Virus record (IMG/VR): IMGVR_UViG_3300028029_000004
Coordinates: 1 to 29,131 of that record
Length of the DNA stretch: 29,131 bases
Source: a virus
Reading direction: 5' to 3' (one strand)
The notes under the pieces were generated by a model that was not told where the DNA came from, searched no databases, and saw nothing but the letters and a program-made list of their open reading frames with translations. Shown here piece by piece: positions 5,687 to 29,131 of the stretch (its first letter is position 1; each line of letters opens with the position of its first letter). The position numbers and the translations under genes are program-made.

Positions 5687-5727
5687 ACTGTCAAATACTT
5701 GACACTTGATTTTTTTTTGACTATGAT
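5687..5727 (+). promoter_or_regulatory. Near-consensus sigma70 promoter TTGACA(5699-5704)-N17-TATGAT(5722-5727), overlapped by the operator-like site ACTGTCAaatactTGACACT (5687-5706)
   Basis: Hexamers read directly from the sequence. The spacer contains a T9 run (5710-5718). It lies in the 268-nt gap between the terminase stop and the portal start. Confidence 0.6.
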
Positions 5728-24400: not shown

Positions 24401-24841
24401 ATGTTTGATTTAGCCGAATACAGCGAACGATTAAGTGACAAACTGTCCCCCTCTACACGATTATCTGAGCATTTCAAAGCATCTGAGCTATCGTGTGCGT
24501 GTTGCGGGAGGGTATTTATCTCTCCAGTAGTGCTAGAAATGCTTGAAAGGCTGAGAGAGAAACTTGGTTGTGCGATATTGTTGAATCCTCGCGAGGGTAT
24601 GGGTAGTGGATATCGTTGTCCTGCTCATAACAGTGATATCAGGGGGGCTACTCATTCCAGACATTGCCTCGGATTAGCAGTAGACGTTCCATTACCCACC
24701 AAATACTTGCACCTTCCCGAAGAATTCGCATTTATAGTGGAGTCTGTGGCTAGACAAGTTAGGGGAGGCTTCCACTATTACCCCGAGAACCGTTTTGCAC
24801 ACATGGATGCCTGGGCATGGCCACCGAACAGAAGGTGGTAA
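24401..24841 (+). CDS. Endolysin, zinc peptidase M15 family (Peptidase_M15_3 / DUF882-like)
   Basis: GGAGGGGG SD. Motifs HFKASELSC, GSGYRCPAHNSDIRGATHSRHCLGLAVDV and AHMD are the H/D/H zinc-ligand pattern of M15 cell-wall peptidases. Confidence 0.85.
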   Translation: MFDLAEYSERLSDKLSPSTRLSEHFKASELSCACCGRVFISPVVLEMLERLREKLGCAILLNPREGMGSGYRCPAHNSDIRGATHSRHCLGLAVDVPLPTKYLHLPEEFAFIVESVARQVRGGFHYYPENRFAHMDAWAWPPNRRW

Positions 24842-24844
24842 AGT

Positions 24845-25501
24845 ATGTCTGTCAACTTATCATTCAAGATCAATATAGGAATAATTCTCTCAGTTGTGGC
24901 TGTAATCTTCATATTCATTCTAAGGCCGTTTTCCTGCCATTCTAGCCCATCTAATAAAAACTGGCACGTACTACACTCAGGATTAAAGAATCTGTCTTAC
25001 GCACAGGCCGAGCCTATAAATTTAGCGAAATTACATGATTTTACTCCGGAGATTAAGGATAACACCATATCTACCTCTATCACTGAAGGAATATGGACGC
25101 CCGATTCTGTGTATACTCCAGAAGACACTCTGATTGTTACCGCGTCTGGTATTACCCTGGCTGACAACACCCATTGGACACGCATAACCATAGATGGTAA
25201 GCCCGTGACCGTATTAAAAGCCGAATACTACAGCAGGAACATTCAAAGACGCTGGATCGTACTGGTAGAAACCACTAATAATGCCGGTATAGGTGCCGGG
25301 ATAGGTTATAACCTGTTTTCGCTTGCCGGTATTGACGCCGTGTCTGCTGTTTCCATCTCAATTCGTGGCAACTGGATAGCTCCGGAGGTTAGAATACAGC
25401 AGAATATCTGGAGCGGAATAGCAATAGGGGCTGGTATAGGGTATAGGTTCGGGGATTCAGAGGGTATTCACTTATCTGCAGGAGTTAGCCTGGAGATTTA
25501 G
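24845..25501 (+). CDS. Membrane protein with an N-terminal transmembrane anchor and a C-terminal OMP-like Gly-rich beta region (218 aa). Candidate non-canonical spanin/disruptin.
   Basis: GAAGGTGG SD. Transmembrane segment INIGIILSVVAVIFIFIL. The C-terminal ~90 aa have alternating hydrophobic residues and repeated GIGAGIGY motifs (NAGIGAGIGYNLF, GIAIGAGIGYRFGD). It follows the endolysin directly. Confidence 0.6.
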   Translation: MSVNLSFKINIGIILSVVAVIFIFILRPFSCHSSPSNKNWHVLHSGLKNLSYAQAEPINLAKLHDFTPEIKDNTISTSITEGIWTPDSVYTPEDTLIVTASGITLADNTHWTRITIDGKPVTVLKAEYYSRNIQRRWIVLVETTNNAGIGAGIGYNLFSLAGIDAVSAVSISIRGNWIAPEVRIQQNIWSGIAIGAGIGYRFGDSEGIHLSAGVSLEI

Positions 25502-26006
25502 GAAAATGGTTCGTTCTGTAAGAATTAGAGCGTGTAAAATCCTTTCGACAGCCCATGTGTCCTGTAGAGATATTTACTGTCTCAACTTTCTTTCATTTAT
25601 CACATTGGACATTTCTTAAAAACAAAACATGTCCGTCCTCTCAAATAGGCTTGTGTTCCAAATACGTTTTCGAATCTCTCCGAGTTTTTGCAAAAGAGGC
25701 GTTGCCTAAAAATCAGAGAGTGAATGAGCTGAAAATATTACATGACACTGAAAGTACTTTTCGTGCAATCGGTAAAAACAGGCAAAAACAGCGTCGTAGA
25801 ATGGCTATACAAGGGCATCTATGAAGACGTGTAATATTATTGAAAAAGTGTAGCTACGTAAATATGAAAACGAGCAATTGAACCAATCCGAACTATTTAC
25901 ATGCTCTAATTTCTAAGAAATGTGTAATTGCCCGGAATTCAATAAATTATTCTGTAGAATTTCAAAGTTTACTGATCACGCGAATCCCTGTCGGAAAAGT
26001 TATGGA

Positions 26007-26079
26007 ATCTTGAAAAACGGGTGTAACTTTATTCTCGTTTTGAAAAAATCTAATATCTTGGAAAACGGCAGTAACTCTA
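26007..26079. repeat. Two 25-nt direct repeats ATCTTG(A/G)AAAACGG(GT/CA)GTAACT(T/C)TA with a 48-nt period
   Basis: Copies at 26007-26031 and 26055-26079, 21/25 identical. Embedded in a region full of GAAAA(A) words. Confidence 0.7.
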
Positions 26080-26130
26080 AACGCGAAAAAGATTGGAGAA
26101 CAGAATAACAGTAGACGGTGCATGGGGGTT

Positions 26131-26158
26131 TTGGGAGACTGACAAAACTTGATAGAAT
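26131..26158 (+). promoter_or_regulatory. Candidate extended -10 promoter TTGGGA-N16-TGaTAGAAT upstream of the tandem modules
   Basis: Hexamers at 26131-26136 and 26153-26158, with TG at 26150-26151. Confidence 0.35.
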
Positions 26159-26187
26159 ATTAAGTTTTCTGCTCTTACGTGTTCGTT

Positions 26188-26409
26188 TAGACAGATCCGA
26201 AAAGTTCTTAAAAGGGGGTATTTCTAATAGACCCATTCCCCCATTTCGGGGAGCGTGGGACGCAACAACTTAGGGGATTGCCACCTAGACAGATCCGAAA
26301 AGTTCTTAAAAGCGAGTATTCCAAATGTCCGTTTAACGGACTTTAGAAACTCTAACCCATTCGCCCGATTCGGCGAGCGTGAGACACAACAACTTAGAGA
26401 CCTTTTTTT
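26188..26409 (+). repeat. Two tandem composite modules (box A 27 nt + box B 42-nt hairpin). Candidate tandem structured ncRNAs or iterons. Ends in a T7 run.
   Basis: Box A TAGACAGATCCGAAAAGTTCTTAAAAG at 26188-26214 and 26286-26312 (27/27). Box B at 26232-26273 and 26356-26397 (36/42). Stem TTCCCC/GGGGAG in copy 1 versus TTCGCC/GGCGAG in copy 2 is a compensatory change. Closing helix CTCTAA/TTAGAG, then ACC and T7 at 26403-26409. Confidence 0.7.
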
Positions 26410-26424
26410 CAAATATAAATACAT

Positions 26425-26469
26425 AACCCCCAACGTGGGGGTTGACATTGGGGATAACCATGCTATGAT
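26425..26469 (+). promoter_or_regulatory. Near-consensus promoter TTGACA(26442-26447)-N16-TGcTATGAT(26464-26469), abutted by the 19-bp GC-rich inverted repeat AACCCCCAacgTGGGGGTT (26425-26443)
   Basis: Hexamers and the 8+8 inverted repeat were read directly. GGAGGTGAG SD and ATG 26494 lie downstream. Confidence 0.6.
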
Positions 26470-26493
26470 ACCCATAGAGATTGGAGGTGAGAC

Positions 26494-26742
26494 ATGAGTA
26501 GAGGAAGACATAGAAGCCATATTCAGTTGAAGAAGCTAGAGGAAGACTGGCTGTTGAGTCGAGTAGCTGCAGACGAGGAAGAAGAACTGTCCTTCAGTGC
26601 AGCGGTGCGAGAAATCCTGGTAACCCACCCAATATTCAGGGAAGTTCAAAGGCGGTTACAGGTAGATCCTGGGTTCAAAGAGGAATACGAGGTGCTGGTA
26701 GCTAAAGGCAGAGAGATTAGACGTGCTAACAAACGGAGGTAG
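26494..26742 (+). CDS. Ribbon-helix-helix (CopG/Arc-like) DNA-binding protein (putative early regulator)
   Basis: GGAGGTGAG SD. N-terminal pattern SHIQLKKLEEDWLLSRVAADEEEELSFSAAVREIL fits strand-helix-helix. It is the first gene after a strong promoter. Confidence 0.5.
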   Translation: MSRGRHRSHIQLKKLEEDWLLSRVAADEEEELSFSAAVREILVTHPIFREVQRRLQVDPGFKEEYEVLVAKGREIRRANKRR

Positions 26743-26746
26743 AGAG

Positions 26747-26959
26747 ATGAAGCATGTGAGTAAGATAAACAAGGTTCTGAACCTATTATTGAAAGGACAT
26801 ACAATATCCCAGCAGGAGGCTATAGCATTCTTTAGTTATTACCGCCTGAGCGATGGAATCTACAGATTGAAGAAAAGAGGATACGATATTAAGACTACAA
26901 TGATATACCTTCCAAATAACGAGAGGTATGCTAGATATGAACTAAGGAGGCGTTTCTAA
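26747..26959 (+). CDS. Helix-turn-helix DNA-binding protein (HTH_39-like, 70 aa)
   Basis: GGAGGTAGAG SD before ATG 26747. Pattern KVLNLLLKGHTISQQEAIAFFSYYRLSDGIYRLKKRGYDIKT....RYARYEL matches the small phage winged-HTH family as I remember it. Confidence 0.55.
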   Translation: MKHVSKINKVLNLLLKGHTISQQEAIAFFSYYRLSDGIYRLKKRGYDIKTTMIYLPNNERYARYELRRRF

Positions 26960-27342
26960 TGTTTAAGTTTACAGACAAGAAAGTAATTACCCGAACCTTA
27001 TTTGAAGCATTTAGTAGGTTCGAACTGATTGGTTGTATGCCTGTGAAATTAGAAGTGCAGTTTGTTGGCCGTAAATACTCTTTAGAGATATCATACACTG
27101 TAGAAATGGAGATATCGCCTACCGGTTATTTGCACAGGACGATGTATTATGATTATGAAACGATTGAGCGTATCATCGAAGCCTATGATAAAGCTACCGT
27201 CGGATTTTATCTTTGGGAGCGGATTGAGAAACAGATAACATATGATGCATATTCTGTTATCGAAGGGGACAATGCTGATAACCACAACACATTCAAGAGA
27301 TTGCTTAATGAAGTGAATGATACCATGAAACGGGAGGGATAA
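26959..27342 (+). CDS. Hypothetical protein (127 aa)
   Basis: TAATG junction with the upstream gene. No recognisable motif. Confidence 0.5.
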   Translation: MFKFTDKKVITRTLFEAFSRFELIGCMPVKLEVQFVGRKYSLEISYTVEMEISPTGYLHRTMYYDYETIERIIEAYDKATVGFYLWERIEKQITYDAYSVIEGDNADNHNTFKRLLNEVNDTMKREG

Positions 27343-28080: not shown

Positions 28081-28578
28081 ATGGATAAAATGGACCATAC
28101 GAGACCGGACATAAAGCAGATGAGGAAAGAGATCAACGATAATTTGCGGAAGCTTGAGGTATTGAACGGTAAAAGCCCGGGTACGTATTCACTGCCGGAT
28201 TCCGCACCGCATATAGTAGAGTACGGCGACGCAGTTCACTTTCATTCAGCGAATATCTCTGGGATCCTATTCGATATGCTAGGGCAAGAAGGGGGTGTAT
28301 ACGTTGCTAACGAGTCAGTTGTGCTGAAGAAGGGTAAAGACACCTGGTTGCACCTAAAAGGGAAGGCATTGACCTCCTGTAGCCTTGGAGACATCTCTGC
28401 TGATGGCATAGGACACCTCGTAAAGAAGGAAGTTCAGGATTTCAAGATTGATGAGCTGTCTGTAGGAGTGTCCATCCAGCAGCTTGTACCGCTTTTCACG
28501 CAGGCCCTGAGGGTGTTGGAAGGTGTGTCTGACCTGATCACAGACTATGAAGTTGTGCTGGACAAAAACCAAACTTGA
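28081..28578 (+). CDS. Hypothetical protein (165 aa)
   Basis: ORF follows the lipoprotein gene. ATG 28090 is an alternative start with better SD spacing. Confidence 0.5.
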   Translation: MDKMDHTRPDIKQMRKEINDNLRKLEVLNGKSPGTYSLPDSAPHIVEYGDAVHFHSANISGILFDMLGQEGGVYVANESVVLKKGKDTWLHLKGKALTSCSLGDISADGIGHLVKKEVQDFKIDELSVGVSIQQLVPLFTQALRVLEGVSDLITDYEVVLDKNQT

Positions 28579-28602
28579 CAGAGGGATTAAACCGACTATA
28601 AT
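28575..28602 (+). promoter_or_regulatory. Consensus sigma70 promoter TTGACA(28575-28580)-N16-TATAAT(28597-28602)
   Basis: Both hexamers match the consensus perfectly. The -35 overlaps the stop codon of the upstream gene. Predicted start near A28609. Confidence 0.65.
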
Positions 28603-28926: not shown

Positions 28927-29131
28927 ATGCGGAGTACTGAAGCCTGTTACCGAGTTTCACAAGAACAAAAGCACGACTGATGGGCTACATCATCAGTGTA
29001 AAACATGTAGGACTGAATATTATGCTGAGCATCGGGAGGAGATAATTGCTCGTAAAAGGGCTTATCGTTTCGAGCATAGGGAAGAGATACGAGCCCGCAA
29101 CAAAGCTTATCGCTCCAAACATAGGGAAGAG
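28898..29131 (+). CDS. HNH endonuclease, N-terminal part (continues at nt 1-329 through the terminal overlap)
   Basis: ATG 28898 with the frame open to the window end, so there is no stop and it is absent from the ORF track. Translation MENITKICGKCGVLKPVTEFHKNKSTTDGLHHQCKTCRTEYYAEHREEIIARKRAYRFEHREEIRARNKAYRSKHREE has an N-terminal CxxC...CxxC zinc finger followed by 15-aa YxxxHREE repeats. Confidence 0.8.
   Translation, partial: MENITKICGKCGVLKPVTEFHKNKSTTDGLHHQCKTCRTEYYAEHREEIIARKRAYRFEHREEIRARNKAYRSKHREE
29100..29131. repeat. Second copy of the terminal overlap (equals nt 1-32)
   Basis: 32/32 identity with the window start. Confidence 0.8.

Follow-up and report, generated by a model that had tools for sequence, protein, structure and literature searches.

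The stretch of viral DNA analysed here (the window) is IMG/VR virus record IMGVR_UViG_3300028029_000004, positions 1 to 29,131, and it carries a pair of tandem composite repeats at 26188-26409. Each repeat, or module, joins a 27-nucleotide segment (box A) to a 43-nucleotide segment (box B) that contains a hairpin. The repeat is non-coding, one pair of the hairpin differs between the copies by a compensatory change, box A is conserved beyond the rest of the module, and the signals favour one strand. The element is real and non-coding and probably active at the level of RNA, without known family and without relatives in any collection searched. Tentatively, and with a probability of about 35%, the locus is read as encoding a + strand RNA of ~245 nucleotides with two paralogous modules, which would act in trans by pairing or by titrating a host factor. 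Its transcription, its ends, its action in trans and its target are all inferred from the sequence. [quoted passage not shown]

An original prediction, made before this analysis, had offered three explanations for the region: tandem small RNAs or one longer structured RNA, decoys of CRISPR repeats, and iterons. The first is the best supported, if modestly, by the compensatory pair, the G·U pairs and the non-coding status; no homologue that would allow a test of covariation turned up in any collection searched.

Organization of the two modules

Box A (TAGACAGATCCGAAAAGTTCTTAAAAG) occurs at 26188-26214 and again at 26286-26312, and the copies are identical at all 27 positions, as had been reported. 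Beyond the box itself, the repeat extends to 41 nucleotides at 90% identity. No third copy with up to three mismatches is present on either strand, and 100 shuffled sequences gave 0 matches. The copies of box B lie at 26231-26273 and 26355-26397. Over the 42 nucleotides first compared they do agree at 36, and over the full 43 nucleotides at 37 (86%), with six differences. Box A is separated from box B by 17 nucleotides in copy 1 and by 43 nucleotides in copy 2, as described earlier; from copy to copy, box A is spaced by 98 nucleotides and box B by 124.

Box B is made up of ACCCAUUC, a hairpin of six base pairs called P3, and a tail, all read on the + strand. In copy 1, P3 pairs 26236-26241 with 26248-26253 around the loop CAUUUC, and the tail is CGUGGGACGCAACAACUUAG. 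In copy 2, it pairs 26360-26365 with 26372-26377 around the loop CGAUUC, and the tail is CGUGAGACACAACAACUUAG. The two tails have the common form CGUGRGACRCAACAACUUAG.

The part between box A and P3 is variable. Module 1, when folded alone, has a short + strand hairpin there (GGG..UAUU-UCU-AAUA..CCC, 26214-26234), and this form is not kept in module 2. Module 2 has a long irregular + strand hairpin at 26314-26352, which is built around a 26-nucleotide insertion and contains 16 base pairs (GAGU-A-UUC-C-AAA-U-GUCCGU / ACGGAC-UUU-A-GAA-ACUC). The perfect core of this hairpin is the inserted GTCCGT-tta-ACGGAC at 26327-26341 that had been noticed before, and the insertion lengthens a helix and disrupts none. 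The ACC followed by seven T residues, also noticed before, is found at 26400-26409. A covariance model built from both modules finds only those two in the genome, and the sequences flanking the two copies are unrelated.

The modules lie in a stretch of 992 nucleotides without a convincing gene (25502-26493), between the lysis genes and the early genes. It had been noted that no open reading frame with a Shine-Dalgarno site covers the region, and the gene calls of two other public assemblies of the same genome place no gene in 26109-26493. The mechanical open reading frames that cross the region have no Pfam or PHROG match. Because 98 and 124 nucleotides are not multiples of three, the repeat would be read in different frames, and it is therefore not a protein repeat. 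One mechanical open reading frame of 80 codons with a GTG start (26255-26497) runs through module 2 and the early promoter downstream, and its end overlaps the start of an 82-residue gene in an ATGA. It is probably a chance frame: no ribosome-binding site is suitably spaced from its start, no family matches it, and it is absent from the two public call sets.

Two further likenesses were seen in and around the modules. A segment of module 1, AAGGGGGTATTTCTAAT (26212-26228), resembles the ribosome-binding site and start of a 127-residue gene, AAGGAGGCGTTTCTAATG (26944-26960), with ATA in place of ATG; this could be chance or a decayed gene start. Another pair of direct repeats, 25994-26031 and 26042-26079, is 38 nucleotides long and 74% identical, has a 48-nucleotide period and the core ATCTTGRAAAACGG..GTAACTYTA, and is located where the gap is richest in A and T (~33% G+C). 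This pair is unrelated to box A beyond chance. Comparison of the upstream sequence with the modules gave shared 8-mers at chance level, and these are not collinear.

A hairpin with a compensatory change

P3 alone combines thermodynamic robustness with presence in both copies. In the ensemble of the full 244-nucleotide RNA its pair probability is ~0.67 for copy 1, compared with 0.93-1.0 for copy 2. The stems proposed for it, TTCCCC/GGGGAG in copy 1 and TTCGCC/GGCGAG in copy 2, are borne out as helices of six base pairs (26236-26253 and 26360-26377). The proposed swap of C-G to G-C also stands (26239/26250 versus 26363/26374); it is the sole pair changed on both sides. Two of the substitutions fall in the P3 loop, as had been said.

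The additional helices that had been drawn around P3 fared less well. The outer CCCA/TGGG helix is present in copy 1, with a pair probability of ~0.83, and fails in copy 2, where TGAG leaves a central C·A mismatch. Of the closing helix there remains only a weak version of six base pairs, CTCTAA/TTAGAG (26350-26355/26394-26399), around an interior of 38 nucleotides. Other pairings that might underlie an attenuator-like switch (box A with tail 1, tail 1 with the second box A, and the second box A with tail 2 and the U tract) are weak, at -7 to -8.5 kcal/mol.

In the structure that was tested, all 14 pairs are standard in both copies (28 pair cells); displacing the partners by 1-3 columns lowers this to 32-50%. 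The paralogues differ by one double change and by one change from G·U to A-U. When six substitutions were placed at random in box B in 200,000 simulations, 1.8% of the outcomes kept P3 paired throughout while changing both sides of one pair or more. A hairpin kept in this way is what would be predicted for RNA or single-stranded DNA, unlike a protein site on double-stranded DNA.

Box A gives a second sign of constraint. It has changed at none of its 27 positions, compared with 10 of 57 in the rest of the alignable module (Fisher p = 0.016). In the full-length ensemble its mean unpaired probability is 0.45 in copy 1 and 0.63 in copy 2 (+ strand). Because box A is invariant and mostly unpaired, the module can be described as an accessible fixed segment followed by a drifting scaffold that keeps its hairpin. 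Folded alone, module 2 is more stable than shuffled sequences (z = -2.66), because of the irregular 16-base-pair hairpin around the insertion.

These signals bear on a neutral explanation, in which a tandem duplication has drifted in a gene-poor spacer and the apparent constraint is due to chance or to recent gene conversion over box A. No homologue was found, so no conservation over time is visible; each statistical signal reaches only p ~0.02 and was picked after inspection; and the overall stability of the fold is marginal. Against this, two independent signals agree, namely the invariance of box A and the compensatory pair within the hairpin of highest stability, and their joint probability is ~3e-4 before correction. 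In module 2 a helix has been made longer by the insertion, and the flanks of the copies are unrelated, hence this is no fresh, clean duplication. A neutral duplication is considered improbable.

Strand and transcription signals

The base of P3 is a U·G pair in both copies, for which the other strand would give C·A. The G·U pairs, an extended -10 promoter and a tract of seven U residues all point to the + strand.

The promoter-like site with an extended -10, which had been proposed earlier, is present on the + strand at 26131-26158. It consists of TTGGGA (26131-26136), a 16-nucleotide spacer, TG (26150-26151) and TAGAAT (26153-26158), matches the consensus at 9 of 12 positions, lies ~30 nucleotides upstream of copy 1 and has a predicted start at ~26165. 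Sites of this kind are as common in shuffled sequences, and its value rests on the TG extension. The sequence around it, AAACTTGATAGAATATTAA (26140-26165), aligns with the -35 region of a promoter that matches the consensus at 12 of 12 positions, AAACTTGACAGAGGGATTAA (28565-28595), which suggests that a promoter segment has been duplicated between the two places. Box A itself was considered as a sigma-70 promoter (TAGACA, 15 nucleotides, TAAAAG) and rejected; the spacer is too short and the site is not called by the scan.

A stronger early promoter lies downstream of the modules at 26442-26469 (+ strand) and drives the gene of the 82-residue protein at 26494. It has TTGACA, a 16-nucleotide spacer, TATGAT and a TG extension, and matches at 11 of 12 positions. 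The 8-mer TGGGGGTT stands directly before the -35 element of both this promoter and the one at 26131 (where it occupies 26123-26130), which hints at co-regulation. The -35 element of the strong promoter is overlapped by a perfect palindrome, AACCCCCAACGTGGGGGTT (CCCCCA-ACG-TGGGGG, 26425-26443), so that palindrome and promoter together span 26425-26469. The palindrome is likely an operator.

The U tract at 26403-26409 (+ strand) is the only run of six or more T residues in the 992-nucleotide gap and may mark a non-canonical RNA 3' end.

A proposed two-module RNA acting in trans

In the favoured reading, the transcript would start at ~26165, driven by the extended -10 promoter, and would end, at least partly, at the U tract. 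Each module would present a mostly unpaired box A of 27 nucleotides, then a variable linker hairpin, and then ACCCAUUC with the six-base-pair hairpin and its tail. The RNA would act in trans early in infection. The identical box A segments would be its specificity element, either pairing with host nucleic acid or bound by a host factor, and the hairpin unit would serve as a stabilizing or protein-binding handle. Two modules on one transcript would double the valency.

An analogy can be found in tandem small RNAs of bacteria. OmrA and OmrB of E. coli, and PrrF1 and PrrF2 of Pseudomonas, are tandem paralogues with identical seeds and a drifting remainder. Like these, the phage modules are adjacent paralogues on the same strand, with one fixed segment and compensatory change in hairpins. 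Unlike them, the modules belong to a virulent-looking phage and have one candidate promoter and one U tract for both, and no target was found in the phage or in reference genomes. In the bacterial pairs, every RNA has a promoter and a canonical terminator to itself, the genes are chromosomal, and Hfq-dependent targets are known.

A second analogy is offered by the RNA antitoxins of type III toxin-antitoxin systems. ToxI units are ~34-45 nucleotides long and nearly identical, and phages can carry mimics of them, such as the pseudo-ToxI of phage PhiTE. The likeness lies in tandem RNA repeats that follow a promoter and precede a U run. Here, however, the units are 98-124 nucleotides long and composite, no ToxN- or AbiQ-like protein is encoded nearby, and there is no Rfam match.

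Several results weigh against the reading as a two-module RNA. Three other loci were retrieved (ENA ERZ27262693 twice, Logan SRR8439058) and are 100% identical over all shared bases; they are thus the same genome and give no comparative support. The 82-residue protein and the helix-turn-helix protein encoded downstream have no relatives among 5.8 billion proteins, and contigs that carry relatives of the phage DnaB (53, 39 and 35% identity) are without the element. Searches by pattern, BLAST and covariance model returned chance matches only. The central 17-mer of box A has 71 matches in GTDB, close to the chance estimate, and none of them extends beyond 19 nucleotides. Within the phage genome, the best duplex of box A with a possible antisense target is no better than for shuffled box A. 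Promoter-like matches in the region are no commoner than in shuffled sequence, and the one proposed reaches only 9 of 12. The terminator scan reports no + strand terminator at the U tract, which has no canonical hairpin before it.

The folding results also contain points of this kind. Compared with shuffled sequences, the fold of the whole RNA is only slightly better (z = -1.86). RNAalifold adds two elements, P1 and P4, namely a long-range helix between AAGUU in box A and AACUU in the box B tail and a mini-hairpin of three base pairs. With these, all six substitutions are compatible with the structure (p = 0.036). They are not relied on here, as their probability in the full-length ensemble is near zero or low. 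The statistics come down to one compensatory pair in one pairwise comparison, chosen after the fact.

Over the whole window, Rfam at the gathering threshold gave no family match, and ARAGORN found no transfer RNA or transfer-messenger RNA. No nucleotide match was found in INPHARED by blastn or megablast, and searches of PLSDB and of IMG/VR DNA and protein gave none or only chance matches inside genes. A box B pattern that required the flanking CCCA and CAACAAC had no match in the 185,579 species genomes of GTDB; in the JGI metagenomes the pattern with the same requirement had five chance matches, with no hairpin and no box A. These strict patterns would miss a host repeat ending in ...GCAAC. 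A looser pattern was run on IMG/VR only and gave one chance match, inside a gene.

If the RNA is real, a very divergent and apparently virulent phage gives a promoter-proximal slot at the start of its early region to a non-coding RNA of two modules. The fixed single-stranded segment joined to a hairpin handle would then suggest sequence-specific action on a host component. To our knowledge, few phage small RNAs have a known function; some have recently been found to be anti-CRISPR decoys or guides. An orphan element with a clear signature of internal constraint would be a reasonable candidate for host takeover or anti-defence at the level of RNA.

Possible protein-binding sites on DNA

The repeats could also be sites for proteins on double-stranded DNA. 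The original prediction had considered the boxes as iterons for the protein encoded at 326-1111. It was right about the protein, which is a lambda-O-like initiator (263/326-1111, + strand; phrog_678, E = 6e-16). The iteron option itself is not supported: there are only two copies, 98 and 124 bp apart, and the initiator gene has its own array.

In that array, a tandem repeat with an 11-nucleotide period, GTTGCAAAGAT occurs ~3 times; the unit is TGTTGCAAAGA, present in 3.2 copies with 95% matches at 529-563. On either side of the array stands GCAGAACTGYTG, at 522 and at 563, and the whole spans 522-574. It is followed by a less regular stretch with a 10-nucleotide period (678-713) and by a 12-nucleotide repeat (723-745). 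In appearance this is a replication origin of the lambda type, located within the O gene.

Iterons were taken to be at least three direct repeats of ~11-22 bp in helical phase, with an adjacent AT-rich region, in or beside the initiator gene. The modules share with lambda-type iterons the form of direct repeats and a non-coding position close to AT-rich sequence. Unlike such iterons, there are only two of them, widely separated and not in register with the turns of the helix; each contains a hairpin of RNA type, and they lie 3.2 kb from the initiator gene on the circle. As iterons, the boxes are unlikely.

A wider version of this explanation would have box A recognized by a protein on DNA, with the boxes serving as operators for the 78-residue winged-helix protein of the early region, as a secondary origin, or in packaging or partition. 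It would account for a perfect identity of 27 bp with drifting flanks, and it can point to the AT-rich stretch with its direct repeat pair just upstream (25994-26079) and to a helix-turn-helix gene 300 nucleotides downstream. It does not account for a compensatory change and G·U pairs, which are unexpected in double-stranded sites. Only two copies exist, the distances of 98 and 124 bp between them do not amount to whole helical turns, and box A is not palindromic. As to the particular roles, the O-like initiator has its own iterons at 522-574, the GC skew has no inflection at the locus, and the terminase genes and the gap upstream of them are 6 kb away on the circle. Protein sites of this kind are rated as rather unlikely. 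Because a role at the DNA level has a better candidate in the iterons of the O-like gene, this was counted in favour of an RNA.

A possible cis-acting RNA or antitermination site

The modules could also work in cis, as part of longer transcripts. They might form a structured 3' end or insulator of the late operon, or a 5' leader that modifies RNA polymerase, as nut, put and rrn boxA elements do. This is viewed as unlikely, though less so than the other rivals.

For the first role, the genes on this circular genome are co-oriented, and late transcripts could reach the modules: no + strand intrinsic terminator lies between 25501 and the modules, and the U tract is the only long run of U residues there. 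Late transcripts may have their 3' end at the modules and the U tract. Neither termination nor insulation explains the invariant 27-mer.

For the second role, box A can be compared with the antitermination site of phage lambda. The core of box A, AAGTTCTTAAAAG (26202-26214 and 26300-26312), resembles the boxA and spacer of lambda nutL, CGCTCTTAAAAA, as read from the lambda record. In the shorter comparison, GUUCUUAAAA agrees with GCUCUUAAAA at 9 of 10 positions, and a hairpin follows. The boxA consensus GYTCTTTAANA permits the one difference from nutL (PMC5725501). When box A was tested against the consensus or against lambda CGCTCTTA, GTTCTTAAAA matched nutL at 9 of 10, and the 8-mer concerned is common in the window. 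GYTCTTAA occurs six times there, compared with 2.2 expected, mostly inside genes. Because it is so frequent, the boxA match is not significant.

The setting shares some features with that of lambda. The first early protein has a basic, disordered N-terminus and the initiator is lambda-O-like, as is the replication module of the phage. As in lambda nut and rrn boxA sites, a promoter precedes a near-identical single-stranded motif, and hairpins come after it. The differences concern the working parts. In nut sites, boxA is followed at 8-9 nucleotides by a boxB hairpin that has a GNRA-like pentaloop and is bound by an arginine-rich protein of N type. No such hairpin is present here; the loop of the conserved hairpin is six nucleotides long and this hairpin stands 22 or 48 nucleotides away, and the hairpin that adjoins box A is wholly different between the modules. 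The 82-residue protein has no N-like family match, and no N homologue is found. Two sites lie in tandem, compared with one per operon in the known systems. The strongest early promoter is downstream of the modules, so that most early transcripts would never contain them. Finally, no + strand terminators that would need to be overridden were detected downstream, and the scan of the whole genome found no convincing + strand intrinsic terminator.

Possible mimicry of CRISPR repeats or guides

The remaining explanation is that the RNA mimics a component of an RNA-guided defence of the host. It might be a decoy of the kind known as RNA anti-CRISPR (Racr), or combine a guide with a scaffold as viral single guide RNAs (sgRNAs) do, and thereby load host Cas proteins unproductively or redirect them. 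This is judged very unlikely. The decoy, one of the three options first offered, was not upheld by the search of Rfam repeats and trans-activating CRISPR RNAs (tracrRNAs), which gave no match on the + strand; the supposed handle varies between the copies, and the likeness to type I-C repeats is partial.

The Rfam search of the locus used a 256-nucleotide query and E-values up to 10. On the + strand it returned no CRISPR direct repeat (CRISPR-DR) or tracrRNA match, and the Rfam library includes a tracrRNA family. Its sole match was to CRISPR-DR35, on the minus strand and in copy 1 only, with 19.1 bits compared with a gathering score of 35.

A likeness to class 1 repeats had been pointed out in the original prediction. 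This was partly right for type I-C, to judge from the part of the published repeat tables consulted: the stem and junction of copy 1 are similar, the termini are missing, and copy 2 is further off. In copy 1, the 11 nucleotides after the putative cleavage point match the putative I-C handle at 7 of 11 positions. In the part of the supplement of PMC10651486 consulted, I-C repeats and phage solitary repeats include GTCGCTCCCC-GYRC-GGGGAGCGTGGATTGAAAT and ...GGGGAGCGTGGGTTGAAA, and copy 1 shares GGGGAGCGTGG(G) and a TCCCC/GGGGA stem with them. The I-C termini, 5' GTCGC and 3' ATTGAAA(C/T), are absent, and the motifs GACGCAAC and GCGTGGGAC are not in the examined part of the tables of solitary repeat units.

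For SRUFinder, a solitary repeat unit is one that is 90% or more identical to a known CRISPR repeat across 90% or more of that repeat and has no related repeat within 100 bp (PMC10651486). Compared with the I-C repeats in the portion of the tables used, box B has ~72-76% identity outside the loop. It is not solitary, as the starts of its copies are 124 nucleotides apart and the gap between them is 81 nucleotides. What would be the handle reads GUGGGACGCAAC in one copy and GUGAGACACAAC in the other. A varying handle next to an invariant box A that is not repeat-like is the opposite of what would be expected for mimicry of one host repeat. The box B patterns, moreover, have no match in GTDB and only chance matches in metagenomes and IMG/VR, and box A has no extended match in GTDB genomes.

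Known Racrs (PMC10651486) resemble the element in being phage intergenic sites downstream of a predicted promoter, with a hairpin followed by a single-stranded tail; copy 1 adds its partial I-C likeness, as far as the tabulated repeats used here extend. They differ in that they are solitary and at least 90% identical to a repeat, compared here with ~72-76% against the repeats in that portion of the tables, missing termini and two copies with differing handles.

The second form of mimicry draws on a guide-like layout, in which an invariant 5' segment precedes a drifting scaffold. Viral sgRNAs have a guide of 14 nucleotides, a stem and a terminator tail (10.64898/2026.06.01.729453). In comparison with the viral sgRNA and rAcrIIA1 (10.64898/2026.06.01.729453, 10.64898/2026.06.03.729762), the modules are of similar size (86 to ~120 nucleotides, compared with 89) and have an invariant 5' segment, a stem-loop and, in module 2, a structured tail that ends in a U run. 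They also lead an operon of early or anti-defence-like character. The locus adjoins a strong promoter, a small orphan open reading frame and a helix-turn-helix gene, which is reminiscent of the loci of anti-CRISPR (acr) and anti-CRISPR-associated (aca) genes. Unlike the viral sgRNA, the modules have no Rfam tracrRNA match and no recognizable repeat:anti-repeat, and module 1 is without a long stem and terminator. No acr or aca homologue was found, and the helix-turn-helix protein is neither a known Aca nor a protein with relatives.

The two forms might be combined. The modules would then be a bivalent anti-defence RNA, in which hairpin and tail are a diverged mimic of a host CRISPR RNA repeat or guide scaffold, copy 1 having the stem and the GCGUGG junction of type I-C repeats, and the 27-mer is a guide that sequesters the host effector or redirects it to a site in the host, in the way reported for viral sgRNAs with Cas9. 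Such a combination is highly improbable. If it were true, it would extend RNA anti-CRISPRs to a composite, guide-bearing form with two units, in an uncultured phage lineage.

Genome and surroundings

The phage genome is ~29.1 kb long with 44.8% G+C, and all credible genes are on the + strand. Bases 1-32 of the window repeat 29100-29131 exactly, and another public assembly of the same genome crosses the contig junction without a break. The window is thus a complete phage genome, circular or circularly permuted.

The initiator gene is followed by a DnaB-type helicase (1095-2396). Packaging, head and tail genes, including a Mu-type portal, occupy 3505-24258. The lysis region contains an M15 peptidase (24401-24841) and, as the last late gene, a 218-residue protein that ends at 25501; all are on the + strand. 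After the gap that holds the repeats, the early region begins with the 82-residue orphan (from 26494), followed on the same strand by the 78-residue winged-helix protein (HTH_39), and then by the single-stranded DNA-binding protein SSB and others.

The 82-residue protein has a basic, disordered N-terminus (MSRGRHRSHIQLKK). It has no family match, N-like families included, and its AlphaFold model (mean pLDDT 63) is too poor for a fold search. The 78-residue protein, also without relatives, matches no known Aca. PADLOC reports no toxin-antitoxin or defence system in the neighbourhood.

The terminase is less than 30% identical to its best matches, which are the closest isolated relatives, and the phage is very remote from anything isolated. 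The M15 endolysin comes closest, at 32-38% identity, to peptidases from gokushoviruses of the gut and from phages that infect Vibrio, Escherichia, Klebsiella and Nonlabens. For the SSB, the nearest matches are in uncultured human-gut phages. Together these likenesses hint at a gut diderm as host; no paper was found that mentions the run or contig identifiers. Despite this hint, the genome uses strong Shine-Dalgarno sites and sigma-70 promoters.

Near-consensus sigma-70 promoters are found on the + strand at 26442-26469 (11 of 12), 28575-28602 (12 of 12) and 5699-5727 (11 of 12). Each lies in an intergenic gap, and they head the early, replication and structural modules. A gene of 176 residues spans the contig junction. 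Inside it, at 29027-29116, lies a 45-nucleotide tandem repeat with two copies that are 73% identical, which gives a protein repeat of 15 residues.

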